IMG/VR virus record: IMGVR_UViG_3300043788_000114
Span: 1 to 64,000 of that record
Length of the DNA stretch: 64,000 nucleotides
From: a virus
Reading direction: 5' to 3' (one strand)
Each line of letters opens with the position of its first letter. The stretch's first letter is position 1. The translations under genes and the position numbers were made by a program. Below the pieces are notes generated by a model that worked only from the letters and a program-made list of their open reading frames with translations, made no database searches and was not told the DNA's origin. Below, in pieces: positions 812 through 48,777 of this stretch.

Positions 812-843
812 GGTGAAAAATGGCGAATTATTGTGGAGGATAC

Positions 844-911
844 AGGGGTGTCGAGCGTTGCCACGCTCAGCTTTCGCCAGTCCATCTCAGGAGGATGGCC
901 ATGACACCCCT
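844..911 (+). promoter_or_regulatory. Structured leader sequestering SD and ATG of the HNH-AP2 gene
   Basis: AGGGGTGTC (844-852) pairs with GACACCCCT (903-911); inner hairpins GAGCGT/ACGCTC and CCATC/GATGG, the latter holding AGGAGG. Confidence 0.65.
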
Positions 912-1809
912 TCAATCGAGATTACCATCGATATTTGGCTGCATATGTCGTGACGAACACTGTCTGATCCCTCGCGGAAAATGCCACTGCGGTTGCGGAA
1001 AAGATACGCCGATAGCGAAAAAGACAAGAAAAGAACGCGGTGATGTTAGGGGATACCCGCATAAATATATTCTTGGCCACACGAGAAATGTTGGACACCG
1101 CCCCTTTCTTCCAGCAGGCATGTGCGTGTGTCGCGATCCAAATTGCACAATACCATTTGGTTTTTGCCACTGCGGATGTGGTCAGAAAACAAATATTGCG
1201 CCAAATTCTGATACGAAATCTTATTGGATTAAGGGTTTGCCAATTCCATTTCTTCTTGGTCACCATCGTAGGGAAATTCCAATTGCTGAAGATGCCGCGC
1301 CATTCAAAATCAACGGCTTCTATTGTAGATTGATTCCACTAACGCAGGGATTGCATGTAATCATTTGGGAGGCAGACTACAAATACTTAATGCACTGGAA
1401 GTGGTTTGCTGTTTGGGATGAGAATGCAAGATCGTTCTATGCTGGACGCCAAATAAGGGAGAAAAAAGGGAAACAATACACGCAATACATGCATCGGCAG
1501 CTTCTTGGTCTTGGAAAAGGCGATAAGCGACTAGGAGATCACGCAAACGGCAACACCCTAGACTGCCGCAGAGACAATCTTCGCTATGCAGGCTACGACG
1601 GCAACGCTCGTAATAGGAAAAAGCAACGCAACAATACGTCTGGTTTTAAGGGAGTTTCGCTAGATAGAGATACGGGGTTATATTCAGCAAATATAAGGGT
1701 CAACGGGGTATTGATTTATCTCGGGAGAAGGGGTTCTGCGCGCTTAGCTCACGAACTATATTGCTTTGCATCCAAATCGCTCCATGGAGAATTTTCTCGT
1801 GTACAGTGA
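901..1809 (+). CDS. HNH homing endonuclease with C-terminal AP2 domain and N-terminal CHCGCG repeats
   Basis: DHANGNTLDCRRDNLR HNH motif; NNTSGFKGVS...YSANIRVNG..IYLG AP2 motif; two CHCGCG repeats; SD AGGAGG before ATG 901. Confidence 0.9.
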   Translation: MTPLQSRLPSIFGCICRDEHCLIPRGKCHCGCGKDTPIAKKTRKERGDVRGYPHKYILGHTRNVGHRPFLPAGMCVCRDPNCTIPFGFCHCGCGQKTNIAPNSDTKSYWIKGLPIPFLLGHHRREIPIAEDAAPFKINGFYCRLIPLTQGLHVIIWEADYKYLMHWKWFAVWDENARSFYAGRQIREKKGKQYTQYMHRQLLGLGKGDKRLGDHANGNTLDCRRDNLRYAGYDGNARNRKKQRNNTSGFKGVSLDRDTGLYSANIRVNGVLIYLGRRGSARLAHELYCFASKSLHGEFSRVQ

Positions 1810-3958
1810 GCGCATCGCATTGCAAAACTTAAACTACTTCGCATCCTCTGAAGGATGGATGCCGGTTTACCACACCTTCGACGAGATCAGGAACTTCACA
1901 GCCTACATCAATAAAATCGTCAAGCCGATGGAGTCCAACTCCAAAAGCACCTACTACGGTCTCGTCGAGCCGATCACTGAAAAGCGCAGACAAGAAATAT
2001 ACCGCTGGATCGAGAACGAGCAAATTCTTTGCGGCCTCGATTATGGATATTGGCGTGACAATTACGCCTACGTCGTGAACGAAGGTGGACAGGTCGTAAA
2101 GTTCAAGAACAGGCGCTCGCAGGATGTGTTCGACTCCGTTGTCGCGATGCTAGAAGAGCAGGAGGCGGGCATACAGATACTCACGCTGAAGGCTCGTCAG
2201 GTGGGCATCACTACGCTGGTCGCTTTGATGTTTATTCACAGGATGCTTTTCGTCCCGAACACGCTCGCCGTCATGGCCTCGGTGCAAAAAGAGAAGTCGG
2301 AAGAGATCGAAGTTAAGCTCAACACGGCTTACGAAATGTGTCCTTTCTGGCTGAAGCCAATGAGAGAGCCGAAGAGGAGCTTTTCGAACGGATCGCGCCT
2401 CAACATCGAATCTGGAATGCAACCGAAGGGAATTGCGCAGGGAAAAACGCCAACGCTAATTCACATTTCCGAGATCGGGCTGATCCCGAATCCGCACAAT
2501 GTGATCGAAGAAGGACTTCTCCCGGCCACGCACTCGAACAAAAACCTGTTCATGGTATTCGAAGGAACCGGCTCCGGCAACGTTGGATGGTTCCCAGACT
2601 TCTGGCGCTCGCAGAAGAGAGACTGGCCGCTCGGGCTCGCCAGAATGTGCCCGGTATTCATTTCGTGGCCGCTCGCAACCGATCTGTACCCTCAAGCAGA
2701 CTGGCTAAGACAGCATCCTGTTCCAGCGGGATTCTACGAAAAGAGGACCGAGGCAACCAAGGCTCACATTTCTCGGTGCGAATCGTATATCCGCAACACT
2801 CCTTACCTTTCGAAAGTCGTCGGATCAAGCTACCGCGTGCCTATCGAGCAACAATGGTTCTGGGAATTTGAGTGGCGTCAAGCAAAGGAAAGACATTCCC
2901 TGTTCCAGCACGCCGCGCGGCTCCCGGCAGACGATTTTGAGGCTCTCACGGGAGAACACGATAGCGTCTTTGATCAAGAAAAAATCATGGAGATCGAGGA
3001 CCACATTTACGAAATCAAAACAGATGGGTCCAAGTCGCGGCGGAAACCGGTGCAGGCTTACGCAATCACTGGTCACTCGATTGACGAGGAGTTCGAGCCG
3101 GAGGATTCGCAGATCGATCCTTATGAAGAGGTGATCCACCTGATCTGGAGATCGCATCGTGGCGAGCGTTACGATTGGGAATTAGTTCCGCTCCGTCCGT
3201 TCGACGAGGAAAATGAGAATGAGACTCTGGACAAACTTCTGGTCTTCGAGCCGCCGAAAAAAGGAGAACTCTACAGTTGCGGTGTGGACACGGCGCACGG
3301 CCTCGGCAAAGAGGATGAAGATCGTTTTTGCGCATCGATGACGCGCGTTTCAAGTGGATCAGGCTCCGACGTTCAATCCTGTGAACTCACTTCAAATCGC
3401 TTCTCCCCAGCGCAGGCCGTTCCGTTCCTTGCCGCAATAGCAACGTGGTACGGACAGGGATCAGGGCACTATCGCGGCGTCAAATTCTCCATCGAACAGG
3501 TTGAAGGCCCCGGCGACACGTGCCAGAACCAATTAAAGATTATGGGTTTTTCATGGCACCACACTCCGGGAAGGCTCGATGGCAAGAAGATCAAAGACGA
3601 AAACCGGCACCGTGAAGGTTGGTACTCTAACAAAACGACCGTGCCGATTCTCATGGACCGTTTCGTTGAGGCTGTGAATGGCGGCTGGTACGTTCCTCAG
3701 TCCAAATGGCTGATCGAGGAATTGAAGACGCTCGAACGTCACACGGTGGACGGTGGCAGGGACAAGATGGTTCACCAGAAAAGTAAACACGACGACAGAG
3801 TGCGTGGCGCTGCGCAGAGCTATTTGAATATGCACACCTACGACGATCTTGCAATGCGCAGTCAAAGGCGCTACGCTGTCCCACATAAGAAAAAGCATGA
3901 CCCCAACGAAGGCGTTTGCATGGCGAACGCTTTCTCTGTGGGCGACTGGAACGAATGA
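1799..3958 (+). CDS. terL: Terminase large subunit
   Basis: Walker A-like LKARQVGITT, Walker B-like LIHISE, coupling motif EGTG, RNase H acidic residues GVDTA and HDDRV; GTG start after GGAG. Confidence 0.9.
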   Translation: MYSERIALQNLNYFASSEGWMPVYHTFDEIRNFTAYINKIVKPMESNSKSTYYGLVEPITEKRRQEIYRWIENEQILCGLDYGYWRDNYAYVVNEGGQVVKFKNRRSQDVFDSVVAMLEEQEAGIQILTLKARQVGITTLVALMFIHRMLFVPNTLAVMASVQKEKSEEIEVKLNTAYEMCPFWLKPMREPKRSFSNGSRLNIESGMQPKGIAQGKTPTLIHISEIGLIPNPHNVIEEGLLPATHSNKNLFMVFEGTGSGNVGWFPDFWRSQKRDWPLGLARMCPVFISWPLATDLYPQADWLRQHPVPAGFYEKRTEATKAHISRCESYIRNTPYLSKVVGSSYRVPIEQQWFWEFEWRQAKERHSLFQHAARLPADDFEALTGEHDSVFDQEKIMEIEDHIYEIKTDGSKSRRKPVQAYAITGHSIDEEFEPEDSQIDPYEEVIHLIWRSHRGERYDWELVPLRPFDEENENETLDKLLVFEPPKKGELYSCGVDTAHGLGKEDEDRFCASMTRVSSGSGSDVQSCELTSNRFSPAQAVPFLAAIATWYGQGSGHYRGVKFSIEQVEGPGDTCQNQLKIMGFSWHHTPGRLDGKKIKDENRHREGWYSNKTTVPILMDRFVEAVNGGWYVPQSKWLIEELKTLERHTVDGGRDKMVHQKSKHDDRVRGAAQSYLNMHTYDDLAMRSQRRYAVPHKKKHDPNEGVCMANAFSVGDWNE

Positions 3959-4882: not shown

Positions 4883-5067
4883 ATGCCTCACAATTTACGC
4901 AAAAACAGATCAACGCGATTTGGAATAAGTTGGATGGGTTCCCTGTCGGTGAATGGAGCGATGTATCTTCATGCGTAACCATCCCGTTCGCAAAGGCCAG
5001 AATTACCGTAAACGGAGAATTGGAACGCTCACTCGAAATATCGATTGAGCCTCTGGTGGTCAACTGA
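4879..5067 (+). CDS. Hypothetical protein
   Basis: ATGA overlap, SD-like AAGGA upstream. Confidence 0.5.
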   Translation: MNASQFTQKQINAIWNKLDGFPVGEWSDVSSCVTIPFAKARITVNGELERSLEISIEPLVVN

Positions 5068-5074
5068 GGTAATT

Positions 5075-5749
5075 ATGAAGTTTATCCGTCTCACTAAGCG
5101 CCATAACGAGCACGAGCGATGCCTCGTTTTATGGACTCCGTGGATGACAGTCGTGTTCGACTTTGGTTCTGTGCAGTGCAGAGGAACCGACGAGTTCGAA
5201 CTGGTGATCAAATATCGCGCGTGGGGTCCTGTTTTCTACTGGGGAAACCGCGACATTGAGAAGTTGGGCGAGCGGAACAAGTTCGACAGTTTCCAGTTCG
5301 CCCGCATTCAGCCGCGTTACGCAGAACTTCGTAAGAAGCGTATCGATGACCGCGACTTCTACGAAATCCGGGAACAACTCGTCCGTCAAGGCAAGCGGAA
5401 AAACCCTGCCAACATGACCTATGCCGAGCGCCATGCGGCGACGATGGATGCGGTGAAAACGATGGAGTTCAGCAACAACTTCGTCCACCTGATGACGACG
5501 CCAGTAGCTAAACTTGCCTTGGAGCGTGGCGAGATTGTGACGGACGACGTGACAGGCGAGGTGTTAACGGAGAAGATTTACGACGAGCACGCAGAAAAAA
5601 GCCTAAAACTACCAGTCCGCAACATGGGGATTTTGGGATTCAAAAAAGCAAAGGACCGAGACGGTTACGAGGCAATATGCGTACCGGGCATGGAGCGTCG
5701 GCAAATGGCGACGAGCGAAGATTTGAAGATGATCGGAGGCGGAGAATGA
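5075..5749 (+). CDS. Hypothetical protein
   Basis: SD GAGGT; 224-aa ORF. Confidence 0.65.
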   Translation: MKFIRLTKRHNEHERCLVLWTPWMTVVFDFGSVQCRGTDEFELVIKYRAWGPVFYWGNRDIEKLGERNKFDSFQFARIQPRYAELRKKRIDDRDFYEIREQLVRQGKRKNPANMTYAERHAATMDAVKTMEFSNNFVHLMTTPVAKLALERGEIVTDDVTGEVLTEKIYDEHAEKSLKLPVRNMGILGFKKAKDRDGYEAICVPGMERRQMATSEDLKMIGGGE

Positions 5750-6456
5750 ATAGGCGATCCCTTTTCAAGTTCTTTGGTATCGGAGTGGCGACGGCTGTGG
5801 TTGCGCCTAATTTCCTAGTTGAAACAAAGATGCGTAAACTCGATAAAGTAGTCAGCAGGAGGACAAATATCCCATCGCCATCGATATGCGGCGATATGTA
5901 CGAGCGGCCCCGCAAAGGATACGATTATAGTATCGGCGTGTACGTCGGAGACGAGATAAGCAGTCTTGATCCTTCCTGTATATCGATAATGCGCAAGGGT
6001 AACGGTAATGAATCAGATGTGCAAGCAGCCGAATTTATATACGGGCAGATGAGCGTGCTCGCATTAGTCGAACAGGTTGCATATTGGGCCAAGTGGTACG
6101 GCGCTAAGTGCAAGGATTCAAGAGGTCCACTAATAGTGATTGAACAGGTACAAGGGTATGGAGACCTTTGTCAAGCACAGTTGAAGATCGCAGGAATGAC
6201 ACGTTTTCATCGTGCCGCAGGGTATATTCCAAACAAGCCGCCAATGGTCAGAGATGGGTGGTATAGCACAAGGATGTCCACCCCACTTATTTTCTACAGA
6301 TTTTTTGAAGCGCTTGAGAATGGCTGGTACCGACCGAATTCAGAGACACTGAAGGACTGTCTGAAGCAGTACCCGCCAGAGGATTCAAGAAGAGGATGCC
6401 TCGCAGCGGCGGCGCAGTCTTACGTAGGCGCTCATGGATTGGAGCGTCGAGCATGA
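5746..6456 (+). CDS. Inactive paralogue of the terminase nuclease domain with Tat-like N-terminus
   Basis: Collinear with the TerL C-terminus (SDVQ, IEQV.G.GD.CQ.QLKI.G, GWYS, GWY.P.S, AAQSY), but GVD is GVY and HDD is absent. Confidence 0.85.
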   Translation: MNRRSLFKFFGIGVATAVVAPNFLVETKMRKLDKVVSRRTNIPSPSICGDMYERPRKGYDYSIGVYVGDEISSLDPSCISIMRKGNGNESDVQAAEFIYGQMSVLALVEQVAYWAKWYGAKCKDSRGPLIVIEQVQGYGDLCQAQLKIAGMTRFHRAAGYIPNKPPMVRDGWYSTRMSTPLIFYRFFEALENGWYRPNSETLKDCLKQYPPEDSRRGCLAAAAQSYVGAHGLERRA

Positions 6457-7151
6457 GCAAATGGATCAATGTCACGAAGGCACTTCCCGACACTGAAACA
6501 CCGCGTATCGTCGGATGGATGGCTGGGCGAGCTGAGCCGTGCTGGTTTTCTGACGGCAAGTGGTACCTCTACGATGGCACGTTCTTTCTCACCGAAAAGA
6601 GCAGAATCCACACCGTAACGCATTGGATGGCCATCGACTGGATGACGTCAATGGAGTGGCCAGCGCACGGACCGGGTATCGTCAACCGATTACGGCACCA
6701 CGTGGGGCGATTGACGCGAGGAGCGTCAAACATGGCACGCGACATGCGACCGGGAGGATGGGGAAGCAAAGCGCAGCTTTCAAAAAAGCCTGTTTTCTAT
6801 CGCGACTCCTCCGGTAAGATCATGAGCGGGATGCCAGAGAATGTTCCGACACCGCGTGGATTGGAAAGGATAGTCTGCGGTTCCGCTATCGAAGCTGAGC
6901 GATACTCCGAAATGCAGCGTCGGCAAGAACGCGTCGAGCATGGTCGCGAATCCGAAAGGCGCGGGGCTATCGAAGCGGAGTTCCAAGCCGAAATTCGCTC
7001 GGAGATGCGGACAAAAATGGCGAATGCGAGGAATCCAATCAACCGCGAATTCATGCGGCGGGCGCTCGAACGGAACGCACAGATAGGCGATCCGACCGCT
7101 TACGAACGCGAGAGCTACCTACACGCAGAAGGATTCGAACAAGGCCATTGA
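6453..7151 (+). CDS. DUF551-like N-terminal domain protein
   Basis: MSKWINVTKALP...VTHWM motif typical of DUF551; charged helical C-terminus. Confidence 0.65.
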   Translation: MSKWINVTKALPDTETPRIVGWMAGRAEPCWFSDGKWYLYDGTFFLTEKSRIHTVTHWMAIDWMTSMEWPAHGPGIVNRLRHHVGRLTRGASNMARDMRPGGWGSKAQLSKKPVFYRDSSGKIMSGMPENVPTPRGLERIVCGSAIEAERYSEMQRRQERVEHGRESERRGAIEAEFQAEIRSEMRTKMANARNPINREFMRRALERNAQIGDPTAYERESYLHAEGFEQGH

Positions 7152-8905: not shown

Positions 8906-11068
8906 TTGAGTTGCACGACGGACTGGTTGGGAGCCAGTTCGAACCGGGAGAGAACGAAGGGTTGGTTGCCGGACTCTACAGAGACGATTCGTTGGCAAGT
9001 CCCAAACTGGGAGTCCTCCGCAAGCGTCAAGGTCGCTTGGGTTGAGGAGCAGATCGCCGAAGGTGAAGGATACCTTTCCGGCCAAGCGTGCTACCGCGAT
9101 CTGAACAAGAATCTACGTGTTTTCGATGGAATCTTCAAAGATAAAACCAAATCCTCACTGCTCACTAATCAGCTAAAATACAACGTTCGTAAATTCTGCG
9201 AAACGTTGGCCGAAGTCCGTGAGATCGCCGGATTTTCGAGTGACGTTCCATCCTACAAAAAGATGGCCGAGATGCTTACAAAGGTGAGCAAGGCCGTCTA
9301 TCTGGAATCCAATTTTCCGTACCAAATTCTCAAGGTTCTCCAATACGCCACGGTGATGGGAATCGGATACTTATGGCCGAAAGTCAGAACATCGGAATAC
9401 GGTTCCGGACCGCGCGAGATGGTGTTCGACGCTCTTGGCCTGCTCGACGTGGTTCCTGTTCAAATTCCTGCGCGGAGCAACGATGTGCAGGACGCTTACG
9501 CCGTCACGATCTACGACTATATGCCCATCGCGGAGGCGAGTGCTCGCTTCCCACTTTTTTATGGCCAACTCCAGACGGTCGGAAGAAACAACTACAAATC
9601 TCTTATCCAAGCTCAGCGTCAGGATTTCAATGCGACGTGGCGCTACGGACAGATCGGCGAAACACAGAGCAGGAGTTTCGGAAACCTGTACACGGAAATC
9701 CGCTACACGTTTATTCGCGACATGCGCGTGAACACGACGGGCTTAGAAATGAAGTGCGGTGATCCGGGAACCACATGGTTCTACAAGGTTCCTTACATCG
9801 GTCAGGAAATATTCGGCGGCATGAGAAACGGCAAGCCATATATGCGCCCCGCCATGGTCGAAGACTGCCGGATTTATCCAAATCTGCGATTGATCATCAC
9901 ATCTTCCGGGCTCGACAAGCCGATGTACGATGGCACATCTTTCGAGTGGGACCCAAAGATTCCGATTATCCAGTACACGGTAGATGATTGGTCTTGGGAA
10001 GCTCTTGGAAGATCGCTTGTTGGCGATGTGGCTTCCATCGAAACTACGATTCGCAAGCACGAGAGGAAAATCGATCAGGTAATCACCGCGCGCCTGAATC
10101 CGCCAATGGGTTACGATCTCGATACTAACGGCGGACAAAAGGTTGAACACTTCGACATTTTCGAAGAAGATGTGCGCCTCGGTCTGGCTGGAGGAGAGCC
10201 AAAAAAGAGTTTCCAGTCGCTCCTGCCTGACGAAGTTGCCGTAGGTCAAGACAATTGGACATTTTTGAAATATCTTGGAGAAAAAGAACTCGCCCAACTT
10301 GGCTTGAACGATGTAGGAAACCTCGCCAACATCAAGATGAATCTCGCCAACGACACGGCGGACAAGATGCTCGAATCTATTGGTCCAATCGCCAAGGGTA
10401 TCGCGATGAGGATCGAGAAAGCTAACAAACGTGTCGGCGAGAGAATGAAGTATCTGATCCCGCAATTCTTCGACGCCAACAGATTGGTCGAGTACGTCGG
10501 TCCGGATAACGTGGCGAAAGAGATGTTCGATTACGACCCGGACACACTCGTTCCGAGCCACTTGCCAGACGAGTTCATTGGTGGAAAGTATCCGGAGACT
10601 CCATCCAGATATGACCGGCTCACACGGGCGAAATTCTTCGTCAAGAAAATCCGCCTCGTCTCCGTTCCAAGCACGCTGTTGAAGATCACGCAGATGCAGG
10701 AGCAACTGAAGTTCCTCAACCTGAAGCGTGGTGGCGCTCCAATTTCGTGGGAGACGGTCTTCGAGAAGTTGGATATTGCTGATCCGAAGCGCGAGATCGA
10801 GAAGAATTTCAAGGAAGAAGTCGAGCTTCAGAAGATGAAGATTCTCGCTCAGATCGAGATCATGAAGATTTTGAAGAGCCTCGGTATTGATCCGTCGCAG
10901 CTTGGCGGAGGCGATGAAGGTGGGGGAGCTAAGCCAAAAGGCGGTGGTGGCGGCGGCGGTGCGCCGCACGCTGGGGGAAGGCCACCAAGTGGGCAGTCCG
11001 GGCCACGTGTGAAGCAAAAGGGCGCAGCCGGTGGTGCTCCTAGAACACTAATTTCGGAGAGCGGATGA
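8906..11068 (+). CDS. Portal protein (P22-like); true start possibly TTG 8966
   Basis: ~700 aa, between TerL and scaffold/MCP; helical C-terminus and Gly-rich tail. Confidence 0.8.
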   Translation: MSCTTDWLGASSNRERTKGWLPDSTETIRWQVPNWESSASVKVAWVEEQIAEGEGYLSGQACYRDLNKNLRVFDGIFKDKTKSSLLTNQLKYNVRKFCETLAEVREIAGFSSDVPSYKKMAEMLTKVSKAVYLESNFPYQILKVLQYATVMGIGYLWPKVRTSEYGSGPREMVFDALGLLDVVPVQIPARSNDVQDAYAVTIYDYMPIAEASARFPLFYGQLQTVGRNNYKSLIQAQRQDFNATWRYGQIGETQSRSFGNLYTEIRYTFIRDMRVNTTGLEMKCGDPGTTWFYKVPYIGQEIFGGMRNGKPYMRPAMVEDCRIYPNLRLIITSSGLDKPMYDGTSFEWDPKIPIIQYTVDDWSWEALGRSLVGDVASIETTIRKHERKIDQVITARLNPPMGYDLDTNGGQKVEHFDIFEEDVRLGLAGGEPKKSFQSLLPDEVAVGQDNWTFLKYLGEKELAQLGLNDVGNLANIKMNLANDTADKMLESIGPIAKGIAMRIEKANKRVGERMKYLIPQFFDANRLVEYVGPDNVAKEMFDYDPDTLVPSHLPDEFIGGKYPETPSRYDRLTRAKFFVKKIRLVSVPSTLLKITQMQEQLKFLNLKRGGAPISWETVFEKLDIADPKREIEKNFKEEVELQKMKILAQIEIMKILKSLGIDPSQLGGGDEGGGAKPKGGGGGGGAPHAGGRPPSGQSGPRVKQKGAAGGAPRTLISESG

Positions 11069-11865
11069 GGAAGGTATACATCTACGTTTTGAAACATCCG
11101 GAGACGTTTGAGATTCGTTACGTCGGGTTGACTCGTGCGCCACAGCGACGGTTGAACAACGAGATCAACTATCCCCATACAAAACACCTAGCGAATTGGA
11201 TGAACAGCCTTAAGATACTAAAGTTGAAACCCCTCATGGAGATCATAGAGGAATCGGTAGAAGGGGCTGCGGACGAAGCAGAACGACGCTGGATTGCAAA
11301 TTTTAGATCAAAAGGATGTCGACTGATCAATTACACAAGCGGCGGTGAAAATGGTTTCACGATGAGTGAAGAATTACGGGCCAAATTCCGCATACTCAAT
11401 AGCAGGAAGCGTCGCCCAATGTCCGATGAGCACAGGGCAAAGATTTCAGACTCCCTTAAAGGGAGAGAGTTGACACCGGGTAATGGAAAGTATTTTTCTG
11501 CGCTTAACATCAAGCGTAAGGGAATCCCCCTAAGAGAAGAGACGAAGGCGAAATTGAGAGAAATTGGTAGAGCGCAACTCAACGGCAAGTGGTTCGAGCG
11601 GTTCATAGAAGGGTGCCGGAATCGCAAACGCCCCTCAAAGTTCACTGACGAACAAAAGTCAGAAATCAAGTTCCTGATCTCAGAAGGGTACTCGCAAAAA
11701 ATTATTGCCGAAACATTTGGGATATGCATTGGCACCGTTTCGGATGCGAAGAGGGGGAAAATCTGGGCAAAAATAATACCAGCCACTTCCGCATCTATCG
11801 TTCCAGAATTTAAGAGTGTGCCACTCGTAAGAAACGAAAAAGGTCAGTACGAAAGAGCGGCATAG
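11065..11865 (+). CDS. GIY-YIG homing endonuclease with NUMOD3-like motifs and C-terminal HTH
   Basis: YIYVL...IRYVGLT...RRL...AERRWI...LIN; MSDEHRAKISDSLKGR. Confidence 0.85.
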   Translation: MRKVYIYVLKHPETFEIRYVGLTRAPQRRLNNEINYPHTKHLANWMNSLKILKLKPLMEIIEESVEGAADEAERRWIANFRSKGCRLINYTSGGENGFTMSEELRAKFRILNSRKRRPMSDEHRAKISDSLKGRELTPGNGKYFSALNIKRKGIPLREETKAKLREIGRAQLNGKWFERFIEGCRNRKRPSKFTDEQKSEIKFLISEGYSQKIIAETFGICIGTVSDAKRGKIWAKIIPATSASIVPEFKSVPLVRNEKGQYERAA

Positions 11866-15140: not shown

Positions 15141-15159
15141 GTGATTGAAAGGAAACGAC

Positions 15160-16437
15160 ATGCCATTTACGCCGACAGACCCCACCTACAATGAGATCGA
15201 CTCCACAAATTTGGAGTCCGTGAGGAAAGAGGTTGTATGGAACAACTTTTTCGTCGGCACTCCATTCCTCGAAGAGTTGCGCCGCGCAGGCGTAGCCGAC
15301 CCATATCTGGGCGGCGCTGGCATGACCGAAGTGTTCCTCTTCGGTCGTCCGCAGGGCGCAGGTGTCAACCCCGGCCAGACGATCACGGTGACCCGTCAGC
15401 AGATCACCGACAAGCTGAAGTTCTACGAGAAGGGCTACGCTTCGTGGTTCCCGATGGACGACTGGGAAATGGACGACGGCTCGGGAACGGGCGGCGTCAT
15501 CAACTCCGGTCCGGCCAAGATTTGCGACATCTACGCGATCTTCATGGAAGCCTTGGTGATGCAGATCAACACCATGCTGGAGATGGACGCGTATCGTCAC
15601 GGCCAGCAGTCCTCATCTACGGTGCAGGACAACCGTTACAAGGTTTCGAACGGCCTTGACGAGGCGTTGAACAACGGCATCGATACATCGCTCTACGGAA
15701 ACCGTTACACCTCGTATGGGCAGCAGTTGCGCAACGGCGCGGTAGGCTCGGCGATCAACGTGACGCCGCTCTATCTCGGCCAGCCTAACTTTGGCACCGC
15801 AGCGGCTCCGGCAACCAGTGGTCCCGGACAGATCAACTTCGGATCGCTGATCCAACTCTGGTCGCAGTGCAAGATTACCGGTGGAGCGCCGAAGTTGGGT
15901 ATCACGAACGTGTTCGGCTTCAAGGCCATCGCGATTGCACTCGACGCTTACCGGCGCGATATTTCAAACGTGAAGCACGACATCACATGGGATGCGCTGG
16001 ACTTCAACGGAACCCAGATTTACTCCGATCCTCTAGCTCCGTCAGCGACCGCCCAGTATTACATTCCTCTCAGTTCAAACGCGGGCGCTTCCGGCAACAC
16101 GTCACTGGTTGACGGCGTGGGCAAGAACACCACCACGGTCGCCTACACGACACCGCAGTTCTTCAATGCGGCTGGCGCGGCGGTCAATTTCTCGCCGACA
16201 AACTCCGGCCTACCGTCAAATGCGGTCATTCAGCCATCGGAGGCGGTTTACTTCCTGACGCCGAACACCTTCAAGCTGAGGACCACTGACAAGGCTGGAT
16301 GGAACTTCGGCGTGCGCAGAACGAGCCAGTGGAACAACGTGAGCGTGGACACCATCTTCATGCGGTTGGCAACGAACCTGTACTGCACCCAGCCCCGCCA
16401 AAATGCTTACGCATACGGGTTCACAGCAATCGGCTAA
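15160..16437 (+). CDS. Major capsid protein (HK97 fold likely)
   Basis: 425 aa after the scaffold; C-terminal NLYCTQPRQNA typical of P22/SU10-like MCPs. Confidence 0.8.
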   Translation: MPFTPTDPTYNEIDSTNLESVRKEVVWNNFFVGTPFLEELRRAGVADPYLGGAGMTEVFLFGRPQGAGVNPGQTITVTRQQITDKLKFYEKGYASWFPMDDWEMDDGSGTGGVINSGPAKICDIYAIFMEALVMQINTMLEMDAYRHGQQSSSTVQDNRYKVSNGLDEALNNGIDTSLYGNRYTSYGQQLRNGAVGSAINVTPLYLGQPNFGTAAAPATSGPGQINFGSLIQLWSQCKITGGAPKLGITNVFGFKAIAIALDAYRRDISNVKHDITWDALDFNGTQIYSDPLAPSATAQYYIPLSSNAGASGNTSLVDGVGKNTTTVAYTTPQFFNAAGAAVNFSPTNSGLPSNAVIQPSEAVYFLTPNTFKLRTTDKAGWNFGVRRTSQWNNVSVDTIFMRLATNLYCTQPRQNAYAYGFTAIG

Positions 16438-30065: not shown

Positions 30066-30275
30066 ATGAAGAACTGGAAGACGACTGCGGCGGGCATCCT
30101 CAGCGCCCTGCTCGGCATGTCCGGGCCAACAACAGCACTACTGGCCGCTCTCCAAGCGATGAAGACCACACCGGATTACCGGCTCGCAATTTGGGGCGCA
30201 GTCCTCACATTCATTTTCGCAGTGCTGCGCGTGTGGCTCGGCTTGATCCAAAACGATGCACCGCCGAATCCATAA
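30066..30275 (+). CDS. Putative holin
   Basis: MKNWKTTAAGIL start, two TM segments, upstream of endolysin. Confidence 0.6.
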   Translation: MKNWKTTAAGILSALLGMSGPTTALLAALQAMKTTPDYRLAIWGAVLTFIFAVLRVWLGLIQNDAPPNP

Positions 30276-30290: not shown

Positions 30291-31064
30291 ATGGCACACT
30301 TCAAGTTAGGTCGGAAGGCGCTCGTAACCGATTCACGTACTCTGCGTCTCGCGCGCTACTTCTCGCCGACTCTCGCTCCCCCGCCTGCCAGCGTCGATTG
30401 GACCAAGGGTGTCACCCAATTCGGAATGATGCTCAACGGCCCGGACCCAAACAATCCGCCGAGCGCATCAGACGGCCTCGGTGACTGCACGATTGCCGGT
30501 GTGGCCCACGCGATTCAGATTTTCACCGCCAACTCAGGCACCGAAGTCACACTTCCAGACCAGACCATCCTCGACTACTACGAGTGGTGGGACGGCTACG
30601 TCGATGGCGATCCTTCGACCGATAACGGCGGGGTTGAAATCGACGTGCTGAATCACTGGAAGAAGAAGAAGTTCTGGGGGCACAGGCTCACCGCCTACGC
30701 CGATCCGGATGTGTCGAACCTGACGGAAGTCCGGCAGGCAGTGAGTTTGTTTGGTGGCCTCTACATTGGTTTGAGCGTCACTGACCAAGTGATGCAGAAC
30801 GACAACGATCCGACGATCCCGTGGGATGTCACGCCGAGTGATACAATCGACGGCGGTCACTGCGTGTTCGTGACAGGCTATGACGCTCAGTTCATCTACT
30901 TCATTTCATGGGGCCAAATTTACAAGATGACTCTGGCTTATTGGAATGCGTATGTCGATGAAGCGCACGCGTTGCTGAGTCCGGACTTTTTAGGAGCCAA
31001 CGGGCTCGATCCGCAGGGATTCAATCTCAAGCAATTGCAGGCTGACCTCGCAACCATCGTTTAA
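30291..31064 (+). CDS. Papain-like (C1) cysteine peptidase
   Basis: SVDW, GDCTIAG, GGHCVFVTGYD, ISWG. Confidence 0.8.
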   Translation: MAHFKLGRKALVTDSRTLRLARYFSPTLAPPPASVDWTKGVTQFGMMLNGPDPNNPPSASDGLGDCTIAGVAHAIQIFTANSGTEVTLPDQTILDYYEWWDGYVDGDPSTDNGGVEIDVLNHWKKKKFWGHRLTAYADPDVSNLTEVRQAVSLFGGLYIGLSVTDQVMQNDNDPTIPWDVTPSDTIDGGHCVFVTGYDAQFIYFISWGQIYKMTLAYWNAYVDEAHALLSPDFLGANGLDPQGFNLKQLQADLATIV

Positions 31065-31073
31065 GGGAGCACT

Positions 31074-31607
31074 ATGAATCGCAGAATGTTTTTGAAGATG
31101 TCCAGTGGCGCAGCGGTCGCAGTGGTGATCCTGCCAACCACCGGTTGTGCTTTCTCGGTGGTCGATACGCTTGACACGATCATCGAGGCAGTGAAGGGAA
31201 TCCTCGCCTACGTGGGCTCCTCCGAGCCATGGGCTGTGACGCTCCAGAATGCGCTTACCACGTTGGAGCAAGTTGCGGCGACGTGGACGACAGGCAGTGA
31301 TACCGCTATCTTGATCGATGCGCTCAATGCCGTCGAAGCGGTGCTCGCAGTGATTCCTTTGACTGCCGTGTACTCGCCGCTCATCGATCTCGTTGTGGCT
31401 GGCGTGGAGTCGATCATCAGCTACTTCGCCAAGACTGTTCCGGCGATTGCTTTCAAGGTAGCCGCGCGCAGAGCGACCCACAATCCACGCATTGGCCGGG
31501 TCAAGATCATGGCTCCGCACACTTTCCAGACGCCTGTTGGAGCGTTCAAACAGCAGTACAACGACGCGGCCATTGGTTGCGGATGCCCGCAATTGAAGTT
31601 GAAGTAG
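31074..31607 (+). CDS. Tat-signal lipoprotein
   Basis: MNRRMFLK twin-arginine motif, TTGC lipobox-like. Confidence 0.65.
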   Translation: MNRRMFLKMSSGAAVAVVILPTTGCAFSVVDTLDTIIEAVKGILAYVGSSEPWAVTLQNALTTLEQVAATWTTGSDTAILIDALNAVEAVLAVIPLTAVYSPLIDLVVAGVESIISYFAKTVPAIAFKVAARRATHNPRIGRVKIMAPHTFQTPVGAFKQQYNDAAIGCGCPQLKLK

Positions 31608-31620
31608 TTCTAGGTGGTCG

Positions 31621-31923
31621 ATGATCCGCATCGACATGTTCGACGGTGCGCAGCCAAAACGCGGCGATTTGGTGCAGACCAACTGCGGGAATCGCCGCGA
31701 GCGCACGTGGTTCGTCATTCATGCGCGCAGAGTGAAACGGCGAGAAGATTCCGTCCCGCGTTACGAATTACACATCGTCCGCTGGTACGACATCGATCCT
31801 GAGATGCGGGTCAGGCTTTTCCAGAGCGCCGAGCGCCGTGGCGGACAGCGAGTGATCACCTTCAAGCGGTATCCGGCCAAGCGCAAGGCGAGAACCTTCG
31901 AGCAGTACATGGGAGCGCGATAG
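31621..31923 (+). CDS. Hypothetical protein
   Basis: 100-aa ORF, coupled to the lysozyme gene. Confidence 0.55.
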   Translation: MIRIDMFDGAQPKRGDLVQTNCGNRRERTWFVIHARRVKRREDSVPRYELHIVRWYDIDPEMRVRLFQSAERRGGQRVITFKRYPAKRKARTFEQYMGAR

Positions 31924-32348
31924 TGCAGATCAGCCCTAATGGAATCGCCTTCATTGAAGCAAACGAGGGATTTTCTGCGACCGTTTACAACGATACTGCG
32001 GGGAACGCCACCATCGGCTATGGGCATAAACTGGAAGTTGGAGAGTCTTTCCCTAATCCCATTACACAAGAAGAGGCTCAGCAACTTCTCCTTGGCGATC
32101 TGGCGCTTGTGGAACTCACGCTGGCTCAGTTAGTCCCTCCGAGTTGCACGCAAAGTCAGTTCGACGCTTTATGCGATTTCGGCTTCAATTTAGGCTGCGT
32201 GGCCCTCAAGACAATGCTCGGGCATGGATGGGAGTTTGTTCCTCTTCAAATTCCAAGATGGGATTTTGAAAAAGTGAATGGCGTAGAGCAACAGAGTCCA
32301 GCGCTTGAGGCTAGACGGCAGAGGGAAGTTGCTCTGTTTAATTCGTAG
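31923..32348 (+). CDS. Endolysin, GH24 lysozyme
   Basis: EG....YND..G..TIGYGH; QFDALCDFGFNLG; L..RR.RE..LF. Confidence 0.9.
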   Translation: MQISPNGIAFIEANEGFSATVYNDTAGNATIGYGHKLEVGESFPNPITQEEAQQLLLGDLALVELTLAQLVPPSCTQSQFDALCDFGFNLGCVALKTMLGHGWEFVPLQIPRWDFEKVNGVEQQSPALEARRQREVALFNS

Positions 32349-45993: not shown

Positions 45994-48777
45994 ATGCCCG
46001 ACCCTCAGCACAAACTCGTCAAGGTAGACGACTCGATCATCAAGTTTCCGGGTGACATGCCCGACGCTGATGTGGCTGCGGTCATCAAGAAATTTACTTC
46101 CTCTCCGGACTACAAAAAGCAGACACACACCAAAAACCAGATGCCATCGGGGATCGCGACGGAGGAGTCTGAGCACAAAAGACTCACCGGCAATGTTCCG
46201 ACCGTCACGCCGGACTGGAACACGGTGCGTCGGGCCGTCTACAAGGCCACAGAGCCCACTCTCCAGAACCCGAATACCAAGCCGGTCGACAACAGCGTAA
46301 AAGCGAACGTGGACGCCGCGTGGAACGCTGGAGCGAACGCAGCGAACGTGGGAGGAAACATCGCCAAGCGCGCGGGGCGCGTGATCTTTGGCGCGGTGGA
46401 CATGGCTCCGCAGATGTTCTCGATCCTGTCGAAGCTGGGATCGCCGGACGACAAGGTTTCACAGCAGGCCGAGACGGACTTGCTCAACTTCCATCCGGGC
46501 GCACAGATCGCGGACCGGCTGAAAGAGGCTGTCCACGACTGGCGGAAGTCGAAGAGCCTTGCGGCAGAGAACGCGTTGGGGGATGTGCTTGGATTCTTCC
46601 TGCTCGACAAAGCAGGAAAGGTTCTGCCGGAAGAGAGGATCAAACAACTCAACGCGGAAGGCGTGGTGCTTCCTCCGGAGGCAAAGCCAAAAGCTCCAGC
46701 ATCGATGCCGGGACAGCCACCGACGATTGAGGGAACATTTGAGCGCGCCACGCCGAAGCAGGTTGTGCCGGTCGAAGCGGCTGCGAAGCAGACCAGAAAC
46801 ACGCCGCCCAATCTGGAGGATGTGAAGGCGGCGGCGGAGAAACTCAAGCTGCCTGAGACGAATCCTCCAGCCGCGCCGCCGTCACTCGCCGACATCAAAG
46901 CCAAGGCAGAAGCGGTAAAGGCATCCAAGCCGGAGATCGCGCCGAAGCCTGCACCGCAGCCAGTAGCGACTCAACCTGTCGCAGCGCCGCCCAAAGTCGA
47001 AACTCCCGCACCGCAACCATCCACTGCTGTTCCTCCAGAACCGCCGAAAGCCGAAGCACCGCCAGCGCCAAAAGAGGAGCCTAAAACTACCAAGTACAAA
47101 TACGGCAACACACAAGCCGACATCCCGCAAGACTCCGACGCAGGTAAAGCTCTCGCGACCGCCCGCACCCAGATCGACAAGAACGACCTGATGCCGTCAA
47201 CTAACACGACAGATGGAAGCGGTCTCGAAGAGAACGCGCACATCACTGTGCGCTATGGAATCGACGGCGAGGACACGGCAGGGATCAAAGCGTATTTGGA
47301 AAAGCAGGCACCGTTTGAGGCCACATTGGGCAAGACGACTGCCTTCCCGCCAAGCGAGCACAGCGACGGTGGAGCGCCTATCGTTGTGAACATCGAATCA
47401 CCAGAACTGCACAGGATGGAGAAGGAGATCGATGAGCACGGCAACTTTGTTGACCGTTCGTTCCCGGAGTACAAGCCACACGTCACCTTGGGATATGTGA
47501 AGCCGGAGGCTGCGCAAAAGTATGTGGGCATGAACGGGATGGAAGGGAAAAAGTTCACCGTCAACTCCGTCTCGATCAGCAACAAAGATGGGTCTATCGA
47601 GGAAGTGCCGCTCAAGGGCACGCAAACACTGGAAAATGCGGACCTCAAGCAGGTGTACAAAGCACCCCCAGCGAGCGACATCCAACTTGCCGATGCGTGG
47701 AGGAGACTGGGAGATGTAAAGAACCAACTGGCTCAACTACCCCGCCCATACGATCCAAAACCGGACGCCACGCCGGAGCAGATCGAAAAGTGGAAAGCGG
47801 ATTACAAATCGTGGGCGGAGAAAGCGGAACCGTGGCTCCAGCAGTACACCCAAGCCACTCAGCAGATTGAGGACTTGAAGAACAGAGGTATCGGAGAAAT
47901 CCGGCTACTGCCGGACAAGTCCAGAATCCTTTACCTGAACCGCGCAGGATTGAACACGCTCTACACCGGCATGGCAGGAGAAGCGCGACCGGGCTACACG
48001 CTGAGCGGCGTGAGTCTTGACCCGCACACCGTGAAGTCGATCATCGGCAACCTGATGATCCTCAAACCACCACTGCACGAGGAATTGACGGACCTGATGC
48101 TTCGTGGGATGGACAAGAAAGGTGTAGTGATCGCCGCGATCCCGCGCAAGGGCGACTCGATCCGTGAAGCGGTCTCCACGTTGCGCGAAGAATTGAATCA
48201 TGGCTGGCAGAACACCGTCGCTGACCAGATGGGGAATCATCTTCCCAAGGAAAAGTTTGCGGAGTTGAACGAGGTGATTCCGGAGGGGATGAAGAGCCAT
48301 CTCAGGATCAACTACCCGGAGATTACCGACGACGGCAGCGAGTTGATGAATCGCAGGCGGGTGCGCGAGGCAAGTGCTAAGATGCTATCCGAGGCTCCGC
48401 AAAAGCTCGGGATCACAGAAGACGAAGCTGCCGCGTATCTGTTCCAGTATTTCACCGCGCTCGAAGAACAGCACGGGGAAAAAGCTCTGGACAAATTGCT
48501 CCACATCACCGTACTCGCAAAGGAGATCAAGGATGACTACTTCCGAGCAATCGACCGAGACACCGGAAAGCAAGCAGGTGGAAGAGGTGTGGGAAGCCTT
48601 CAAGACGAAGGGCCTCGCGGGGCTCCGGGAACTGATGCACAAGCGGGACGAGGAGTACCAGAAGGCGAAGGAGCAGCCGCAAAGCAAGTGAAAGTTAAGG
48701 ACCCGGAAGGTTACATCCACATCTTCCCGGATGAGAAGTCGGCATCGGCCTTTCGTGAGGCTGCGGGGATCAAATGA
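45994..48777 (+). CDS. Polyvalent virion protein with 2H phosphoesterase (Acb1/gp57B-like) domain
   Basis: AHITVRYG and YKPHVTLGYV HxT motifs; degenerate zincin-like REELNH. Confidence 0.75.
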   Translation: MPDPQHKLVKVDDSIIKFPGDMPDADVAAVIKKFTSSPDYKKQTHTKNQMPSGIATEESEHKRLTGNVPTVTPDWNTVRRAVYKATEPTLQNPNTKPVDNSVKANVDAAWNAGANAANVGGNIAKRAGRVIFGAVDMAPQMFSILSKLGSPDDKVSQQAETDLLNFHPGAQIADRLKEAVHDWRKSKSLAAENALGDVLGFFLLDKAGKVLPEERIKQLNAEGVVLPPEAKPKAPASMPGQPPTIEGTFERATPKQVVPVEAAAKQTRNTPPNLEDVKAAAEKLKLPETNPPAAPPSLADIKAKAEAVKASKPEIAPKPAPQPVATQPVAAPPKVETPAPQPSTAVPPEPPKAEAPPAPKEEPKTTKYKYGNTQADIPQDSDAGKALATARTQIDKNDLMPSTNTTDGSGLEENAHITVRYGIDGEDTAGIKAYLEKQAPFEATLGKTTAFPPSEHSDGGAPIVVNIESPELHRMEKEIDEHGNFVDRSFPEYKPHVTLGYVKPEAAQKYVGMNGMEGKKFTVNSVSISNKDGSIEEVPLKGTQTLENADLKQVYKAPPASDIQLADAWRRLGDVKNQLAQLPRPYDPKPDATPEQIEKWKADYKSWAEKAEPWLQQYTQATQQIEDLKNRGIGEIRLLPDKSRILYLNRAGLNTLYTGMAGEARPGYTLSGVSLDPHTVKSIIGNLMILKPPLHEELTDLMLRGMDKKGVVIAAIPRKGDSIREAVSTLREELNHGWQNTVADQMGNHLPKEKFAELNEVIPEGMKSHLRINYPEITDDGSELMNRRRVREASAKMLSEAPQKLGITEDEAAAYLFQYFTALEEQHGEKALDKLLHITVLAKEIKDDYFRAIDRDTGKQAGGRGVGSLQDEGPRGAPGTDAQAGRGVPEGEGAAAKQVKVKDPEGYIHIFPDEKSASAFREAAGIK
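48533..48691 (+). CDS. Possible nested out-of-frame 52-aa protein
   Basis: SD AAGGAG; MTTSEQSTETPESKQVEEVWEAFKTKGLAGLRELMHKRDEEY... Confidence 0.35.
   Translation: MTTSEQSTETPESKQVEEVWEAFKTKGLAGLRELMHKRDEEYQKAKEQPQSK

Follow-up and report, generated by a model that had tools for sequence, protein, structure and literature searches.

A stand-alone terminase nuclease paralogue with a twin-arginine-type leader and without the canonical catalytic set in a large soil phage

What use could a phage with a complete large terminase have for a second, separate and apparently non-catalytic copy of the terminase nuclease domain, placed 1.8 kb downstream of the first and preceded by an export-type leader? 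This question is raised by the gene at positions 5746..6456 of a stretch of 64,000 nucleotides, referred to here as the window, which covers the opening 64 kb of a virus record of 138,516 bp (IMG/VR record IMGVR_UViG_3300043788_000114) rated complete by CheckV. The product of this gene, P0001, had been called in a preliminary description a catalytically dead copy of the nuclease domain of the phage's own large terminase (TerL), possibly acting as a decoy. As judged from sequence comparison, P0001 is almost certainly a real, selected and non-catalytic paralogue, and its family is read as one of undescribed stand-alone proteins having a leader of the twin-arginine translocation (Tat) type, a variable linker and a nuclease fold without the canonical two-metal set. 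The features on which the argument is based are the following:

1766..3958 (+): TerL, the large terminase, 730 amino acids (aa), matching PHROG terminase families at E ~1e-13, with GVD, IEQ and HDD intact.
3242..3835 (+): TerL residues 493-690, the stretch matching the paralogue by BLASTP; a second search matched 3242-3730.
5735..5745 (+): Shine-Dalgarno-like GGAGG/GGAGA, read from the sequence, with GGAGG at 5735-5739.
5746..6456 (+): P0001 gene, a leader-tagged vestigial terminase nuclease of 236 aa plus stop, from the open reading frame (ORF) and its translation.
5746..5823 (+): twin-arginine-type leader, residues 1-26, MNRRSLFKFFGIGVATAVVAPNFLVE, with RR, hydrophobic residues at +2/+3 and 17 uncharged residues.
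5824..5895 (+): linker, residues 27-50, variable and of low confidence, with predicted local distance difference test (pLDDT) values <50 for residues 22-46, identity 0.24 and many gaps.
5896..6453 (+): predicted terminase-type RNase H-like nuclease fold without the catalytic set, residues 51-236, from the model and TerL homology.
5941..5943 (+): codon of Tyr66, which by alignment to the TerL GVD takes the place of the first catalytic Asp.
6142..6144 (+): Glu133 codon (IEQ), the retained second acidic residue, Glu in 32/34 family members covering the column.

Residues 51-230 of P0001 align with residues 493-690 of its own TerL at 35% identity (BLASTP, E 3e-29), a similarity that, on the alignment statistics, is far beyond chance, and every motif pair listed in the preliminary description as a sign of collinearity with the TerL C-terminus is present in this alignment. 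The absence of an ATPase domain was likewise confirmed, as the protein has 236 aa in total and the match is restricted to that segment of TerL; the 40-residue C-terminal tail of TerL is also lacking. A split terminase was rejected as an explanation, because TerL is complete and all of its motifs are present. Regarding the start of P0001, position 5746 is preferred to an upstream ATG at 5677 because the homologues all begin at the same MNRR, and related loci also have GGAG-rich stretches ahead of this start. Searches with P0001 gave no match in Pfam (E <= 1) or in PHROGs (E <= 0.01), and its neighbours in a protein atlas carry PF17289 in 20-34% of members, which is a lead only.

The structure prediction and superposition proposed in the preliminary description support the same relationship. 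A model predicted by AlphaFold2 from a 43-row alignment reached a mean pLDDT of 83, with blocks mostly at 87-98 over residues 51-230 (78 at 211-220) and low confidence over residues 1-50. The best Foldseek matches of this model are all terminase nuclease domains, with probability 1.00, and VIA-align gave the following superpositions:

T4 gp17 (3cpe): Z 20.6, root-mean-square deviation 2.6, 174 aligned.
RB49 gp17: Z 20.6.
G20c TerL nuclease (5m1p): Z 18.7.
P22 gp2: Z 13.9.
RuvC: Z about 10.8.

Thus, the identity to TerL and the terminase fold of the model agree in making P0001 a paralogue of the TerL nuclease domain, as first described.

Regarding the catalytic residues, a profile of the TerL C-termini was compared with the RB49 gp17 nuclease, where the GVD Asp falls on LDCSEG and HDD on HDD. 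Tyr66 of P0001 stands at the position of the GVD Asp, confirming the replacement of the first catalytic Asp by Tyr, while Glu133 of IEQ and the following GD are kept. The loss of the HDD motif was found as stated, the region being missing relative to TerL through gaps of 16 and 3 residues that leave no DD. In a study of G20c TerL, three equivalent carboxylates, D294, D347 and D429, are described as indispensable, their mutants losing activity, and the β-hairpin as a terminase-specific element contacting DNA (PMC5389553). The three-carboxylate metal site of active terminase nucleases is therefore not found in P0001, with Tyr66 at the first position, Glu133 kept and HDD absent. The β-hairpin before the last helix is missing as well, as seen by a 16-residue gap relative to TerL and by a model having only helices after about residue 170-178. 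The domain is also basic, with an isoelectric point (pI) of 8.5 in P0001 and a median of 8.3 in the leader family (n=35), compared to 5.6 in TerL nuclease domains (n=41).

These losses were followed across the family by aligning 114 proteins to one hidden Markov model, counting proteins of at least 450 aa as full TerLs (n=42) and comparing them with the leader-bearing proteins (n=38):

First position (β1): full TerLs, Asp 41/42; leader-bearing, Asp 7, Glu 13, other 18 of 38.
Second position: full TerLs, Glu 42/42; leader-bearing, Glu 32/34 covering the column.
Third position (xDD): full TerLs, 39/42; leader-bearing, 0/33 covering, one with Asp in the last column.

As none of the leader-bearing proteins covering the third position has xDD, compared to nearly all full TerLs, the loss of the canonical site is, as far as the alignment tells, a property of the whole family and not an accident of the P0001 copy. 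By the same alignment, the first catalytic position is relaxed across the family and not uniformly dead. Two TerL-like proteins with a partial ATPase region, P0041 (523 aa) and P0061 (390 aa), have Arg or Lys for the first catalytic Asp, and P0041 also has SDA in place of HDD.

Is such a gene maintained, or is it only the debris of a duplication? A word-indexed search returned 23 homologues of 154-249 aa with 40-56% identity, mostly full length and all unnamed, and an exhaustive search of 1.84 billion representatives returned 96 proteins at E <= 0.001, made up of short leader-bearing proteins and of long TerLs matched at their C-termini. Within this library and a database of 5.8 billion proteins, the P0001 family has at least 41 members of 210-250 aa. 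Codon alignments of 10 genes gave pN, the nonsynonymous difference, of 0.22-0.41 versus a synonymous pS of 0.59-0.86, with an omega (dN/dS) of 0.12-0.27 in every pair with computable dS, and about 38 columns are invariant in the nuclease-type cargo. In addition, the P0001-type ORF is intact and of constant length in all 11 of the 23 related loci having it. The preliminary description had named neutral decay in homologues among the outcomes that would refute its proposal, and these values show the opposite.

Some observations would suit an origin as a non-functional remnant of a partial terL duplication, perhaps made by homing endonucleases: terL and the portal gene lie between an HNH and a GIY-YIG gene, some relatives have an interrupted terL, and the paralogue directly follows terL in compact loci. 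Nevertheless, it is contradicted by the selection data and the constant-length intact ORFs, and the size of the family and the confident model also stand against it, so that it can be given next to no credence.

Regarding descent, the two tree methods disagree. FastTree unites all of the leader-bearing proteins in a single clade (support 0.83) that excludes the cognate TerL, whereas IQ-TREE in its -fast mode gives a main clade of 35 (SH-aLRT 93.6) and a trio, P0052, P0096 and P0104 (95.8), beside the TerL P0077. P0052 is 46% identical to P0077 and 32% to P0001, and it has GVH in place of GVD and QDN in place of HDD. The combination of a leader and a dead nuclease may, from these sequences, have arisen twice, from different TerL lineages, with a number of origins that is method-dependent. 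When viral and metagenome scans were made with the alignment of the divergent subfamily (A4), only three loci, L026, L028 and L029, were added.

The next question is where this domain would be sent. Twin-arginine signals follow known rules: an RR pair, hydrophobic residues after it, then at least 13 uncharged residues, and an AxA-like peptidase site with small residues at -1 and -3. P0001 has NRRSLFK near its start, with Leu at +2 and Phe at +3, and then a run of 17 uncharged residues, in good agreement with the twin-arginine or membrane-type leader that had been proposed from the sequence. Across the 41 members, RR is present in 39/41, a hydrophobic +2 residue in 41/41 and at least 13 uncharged residues in 37/41, and an AxA-like site is found by a loose rule in 36/41, often as ...LA at about residue 25. 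The TIGR01409 model matched 10/16 proteins at E <= 10, with 5/16 above the curated cut-off. In a 22-row family alignment the leader has a mean pairwise identity of 0.80, compared to 0.24 in the linker and 0.53 in the domain; an ordinary signal peptide is not usually better conserved than the mature domain behind it. Synonymous sites in the leader vary freely, and therefore selection acts on the peptide.

A genome-wide scan gave one other credible leader of this type, located in the lysis cassette:

30066-30275: holin-like ORF, a neighbour of the second leader in the lysis cassette.
30291-31064: papain-like/peptidase-like ORF, a neighbour of the second leader in the lysis cassette.
31074..31607 (+): second twin-arginine leader (MNRRMFLK...) with a lipobox-like TTGC, on a 177-aa protein, matching TIGR01409 with 17.0 bits (cut-off 16.7).
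31923-32348: lysozyme, a recognised gene in the lysis cassette.

As predicted from its leader and lipobox, the 31074-31607 product may be a Tat-dependent lipoprotein or a spanin-like component. It is mainly because the phage encodes this second leader, with a lipobox and within a lysis cassette, that the leader of P0001 is read as an export signal, and on balance it probably gives Tat targeting, as far as its residues allow a prediction.

The same peptide could be read differently, as a capsid- or portal-targeting signal that loads P0001 into proheads as virion cargo, to be ejected into the next host. The gene is surrounded by head genes, next to that of the portal, and many leaders end in L-x-E/D, which resembles the cleavage motif of the T4 prohead protease. 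Against this, none of the genes in the window was recognised as coding for a prohead protease, the L-x-E ending varies between leaders, and the peptide fits the Tat pattern, the same pattern preceding a lipobox in the lysis cassette; a role as virion cargo is thus extremely unlikely.

What else the leader carries was seen by comparing gene order in 23 related IMG/VR loci, where terL is followed by optional inserts, the leader gene, a homologue of the 6453-7151 ORF and the portal gene, the paralogue standing directly after terL in compact loci. The leader gene is joined to its neighbours on both sides:

5045..5749 (+): upstream ORF of 234 aa, without family, translationally coupled to the paralogue gene and found in some related loci.
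6453..7151 (+): downstream ORF of 232 aa, with a DUF551-like N-terminus and a conserved C-terminal part, its ATG overlapping the paralogue stop.
8906..11068 (+): portal protein, with a weak P22_portal match.

The ATG of P0001 at 5746 shares bases with the stop codon that ends the upstream ORF (ATGA), as does its own stop with the ATG of the downstream ORF. Nuclease-type cargo occupies the slot in 11/23 loci (six distinct), the same leader stands on other cargo in 10/23 (eight distinct), and 2/23, both distant, have no leader gene. There is one leader gene in each of 21 loci, with two in L014, and the 6453-7151 homologue follows it in all 21/23 loci having one. The other cargoes come from these sources:

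L012-L017 and L020-L023: other-cargo loci, e.g. L013:13285-13554, L014:4176-4879 and L015:12003-12434.
P0116-P0169: other-cargo database proteins, with the nearly invariant leader MNRRSFFKFLGIGAATAAVAPK.

The leader is present on 53/54 proteins found with two other cargo types, its mean identity being 0.85 within the other-cargo proteins and 0.70 from one cargo class to another, and the length of the cargo varies from 69 to about 250 aa. Part of this cargo is derived from the portal: that of L013, L022 and L014b is similar to portal residues 432-480 (E 8e-13 and 2e-6) and also matches the same portal segment in most related loci. Among the 54 other-cargo proteins, 13/54 match portal residues ~425-480 and 2/54 match portal 612-652 (P0127 with 51% identity, E 2e-12), and TerL/portal mosaics occur, e.g. 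P0120 and P0121. A cargo type of 143 aa has no similarity to any protein of the window phage. The portal model, with a mean pLDDT of 41.9, is too poor to place residues 432-480, and a search with the portal profile found no solved relative; from the order of predicted helices, the segment is tentatively assigned to the clip/stem. A C-terminal KRN[VAG] ending, considered as a second shared motif, was discarded, being explained by the overlap with the Shine-Dalgarno and ATG of the downstream gene.

That one leader is so constant on such different cargoes could mean that the leader is the working part, a small Gly/Ala-rich Tat-like or signal-arrest-release-like membrane segment acting in lysis timing, Tat engagement or membrane perturbation, with the cargo as exchangeable ballast or tuning. 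The near-invariance on 53/54 proteins, the high identity within and between cargo classes, the same-slot gene in each of the 21 loci (two in L014) and the wide spread of cargo lengths are all in line with this. However, the nuclease cargo is itself under purifying selection with its invariant columns, a second lineage has seemingly re-derived the leader plus dead nuclease, and a holin-like gene is already present in a separate lysis cassette. This alternative is therefore considered quite unlikely.

The origin of the cargo, on the other hand, is the strength of the main rival, which sees P0001 as a mimic of the packaging vertex on the cytoplasmic face: the leader would anchor it at the inner membrane or on a protein, and the cargo would engage the portal, the terminase or DNA, either tethering and timing the phage's own head assembly and packaging or poisoning the motors of co-infecting relatives or satellites. 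Cargoes have been taken repeatedly from the packaging vertex (TerL nuclease, portal ~425-480, portal 612-652 and mosaics), translational coupling ties the gene into the terL-portal operon, the leader is conserved beyond the need of a generic signal, and P0052, despite being near to one TerL lineage (46%), still has mutated catalytic positions. Several features are against it. By the positive-inside rule, MNRR and Lys8 before the hydrophobic stretch predict an N-in, C-out topology, which would put the domain outside the cytoplasm. In other phages the C-terminal tail of TerL binds the portal, and P0001 lacks this 40-residue tail. Moreover, the 143-aa cargo is unlike any protein of the window phage, and a self-encoded dominant negative must spare its own motor. 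On this evidence a cytoplasmic mimic is unlikely, although it ranks first among the rivals.

The preliminary description had proposed, among other functions, a decoy, which would occupy host sensors, such as the Avs-type STAND NTPases or others, with dead look-alikes that do not activate them. As described in one report, Avs1-4 sense TerL and portal by direct binding (PMC13581612), and these are the two proteins from which the cargoes derive; the retention of the fold with loss of catalytic residues also suits a decoy. Nonetheless, an export-type leader would remove the domain from the cytoplasm, where Avs act, and the part of TerL that KpAvs2 is predicted to contact, its ATPase domain (PMC11564622), is absent from P0001. 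In addition, the portal pieces, of only 40-50 aa, are too short to mimic, the slot is filled by unrelated cargo in 10/23 related loci, and a faithful mimic would be expected to trigger the sensor, not to quench it. A literature search, within the portions of text that it covered, found no paper joining Avs, large terminase and a phage decoy. A sensor sponge is thus highly unlikely.

Weighing these observations, the reading preferred here, tentatively and with a confidence slightly short of even, is that of an envelope protein targeted there by Tat, with a vestigial nuclease domain that binds and does not cut. P0001 would fold in the cytoplasm and the leader would take the folded protein to the host Tat translocon; it would then probably remain attached to the inner membrane, its domain facing the periplasm, a membrane anchoring that is proposed because no signal-peptidase site is seen, while most relatives, with an AxA-like site, may be released. 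The domain would act as a binding module and not as an enzyme, by analogy with the C-terminal domain of phi29 gp16, and the basic pI is the only, and indirect, hint of DNA binding. A function at the envelope late in infection seems likeliest, either blocking the entry of DNA or of ejected parts of superinfecting relatives or setting the timing of lysis, but a specific role in superinfection exclusion or lysis control is rather doubtful at present. As a variant, the leader could display look-alikes of the packaging vertex at or beyond the inner membrane, a self-mimicry capturing or misleading whatever recognises TerL, the portal or their DNA; the targets would come from superinfecting relatives, as parts or as DNA, or would be a host sensor pulled to the membrane or to the Tat translocon. 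This variant is very unlikely.

Several observations weigh against an exported envelope protein. Regarding the leader, P0001 has no AxA-like site by the loose rule and no TIGR01409 or Pfam TAT_signal match of its own, two members, P0007 and P0029, have IR for RR, and the conservation of the peptide exceeds the need of a generic signal, which suggests an additional specific partner. The natural partners of TerL and portal pieces, namely DNA, portal and terminase, are cytoplasmic and fit poorly to the periplasm. The gene stands in a head-gene operon, coupled translationally on both sides, and not among early or lysis genes. Furthermore, the dead nuclease is dispensable for the phage group, being replaced by other cargo in 10/23 loci and missing with the leader gene in 2/23. 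Lastly, P0074 (331 aa) carries a dead nuclease of the divergent subfamily behind a leaderless N-terminus of 150 aa, being a different fusion or a gene-calling artefact.

Regarding the phage itself, the recognised genes (HNH, TerL, portal, GIY-YIG, head and lysis) are those of a divergent tailed phage, belonging to a group of large soil phages of 130-160 kb. The remaining recognised genes around the locus are these:

820-1809 (+): HNH endonuclease, upstream of terL.
11065-11865 (+): GIY-YIG endonuclease, after the portal gene.
15145-16437: major head protein.

The only cultured relatives are the Tunturiibacter phages Tunturi_1 and Tunturi_2, matched via TerL (28%) and portal (29%), and described as podoviruses of Acidobacteriota (PMC11924767). 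The leader gene is absent from both. The protein of the downstream ORF (6453-7151, also L027:2206-2727) has a C-terminal part like gp2 of Tunturi_1, as judged by eye and without alignment; that gp2 sits between TerL and portal, with no leader gene there. Because this region of Tunturi_1 lacks the leader gene, the latter is regarded as an accessory insertion. The 6453-7151 product, for which the atlas search gave no usable match, may be a conserved, unnamed head-module protein. Bacterial genome contigs scanned with the family alignment A1 gave 59 pattern matches and 0 relatives, and therefore no prophage copy and no clue to the host. Among the matching sequencing runs listed there is no RNA run, and small shares were found in three soil metagenome DNA runs.

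Other features of these genomes were noted in passing. Homing endonucleases bracket the terL-portal region, HNH before terL and GIY-YIG after the portal, GIY-YIG being also present in L002, L003, L005 and L006. In some relatives terL is split into two or three pieces (L021:5191-9246, L010:1-2745 and L005:3-3379), and the TerL P0063 (1098 aa) has an intein-like insert. The portal frame L010:4356-6494 has one stop codon inside the tblastn range, which could reflect an error in sequencing, an inserted segment or a disrupted gene. Elsewhere in the window, the product of the ORF at 45994-48777 (+), 927 aa long, contains at residues 412-510 a 2',5' RNA ligase-type domain, which scores 26.6 bits (cut-off 27) against PF23474, the family of Acb1, directed against the cyclic-oligonucleotide-based antiphage signalling system (anti-CBASS); it may contain a cyclic-nucleotide phosphodiesterase module.

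The significance of P0001 comes from the enzyme that it copies. No enzyme of tailed phages is better conserved than the terminase, whose nuclease domain has been known only within the packaging motor, so that a separate, selected and dead copy with an export-type leader would be a new kind of exaptation. The same leader on portal pieces in sister phages points to a wider, unexplained use of structural-protein mimics. If P0001 is exported, it would be a rare use of Tat by a phage for an accessory protein and could bring to light a new way for soil phages to exclude superinfection or to control lysis; a protein that stays in the cytoplasm would instead be a natural packaging inhibitor or an immune decoy. 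A limited literature search found no terminase-derived protein with a Tat or signal leader and no inactive stand-alone paralogue.

Compared to known systems, P0001 shares with the large-terminase nucleases (T4 and RB49 gp17, G20c and P74-26 TerL, P22 gp2) the fold, with Z from 20.6 to 13.9, and the retained Glu and GD. However, it is a stand-alone protein without ATPase, first Asp, HDD, hairpin and C-terminal tail, is basic instead of acidic and has an N-terminal twin-arginine leader; it is thus a terminase nuclease by fold and descent, but not a member by the features of the active enzyme, namely the triad, the hairpin and the fused ATPase. With Tat substrates, including Tat lipoproteins, it has in common the RR-x-hydrophobic pattern, a Gly/Ala-rich and weakly hydrophobic stretch and a basic residue after it, differing in a leader more conserved than the mature part and in an export that is predicted from sequence; no Tat substrate with a terminase nuclease fold was found in the literature search. 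Phages are known to place proteins in the envelope against superinfection or for the timing of lysis, such as Imm, Sp and the antiholin RI of T4 and SieA of P22. These are, like P0001, phage-encoded accessory proteins of the membrane or periplasm that vary between relatives, a likeness of presumed role only, as there is no relation in sequence or fold and their genes lie outside head operons.

The nearest functional precedent is the C-terminal domain of phi29 gp16, described as a vestigial nuclease that still binds DNA (PMC7672431). Both are nuclease folds derived from a terminase and lacking the catalytic residues. The phi29 domain, however, is part of a packaging ATPase and works in the motor, whereas P0001 is the product of a separate gene, with an export-type leader and an intact TerL encoded 1.8 kb upstream.

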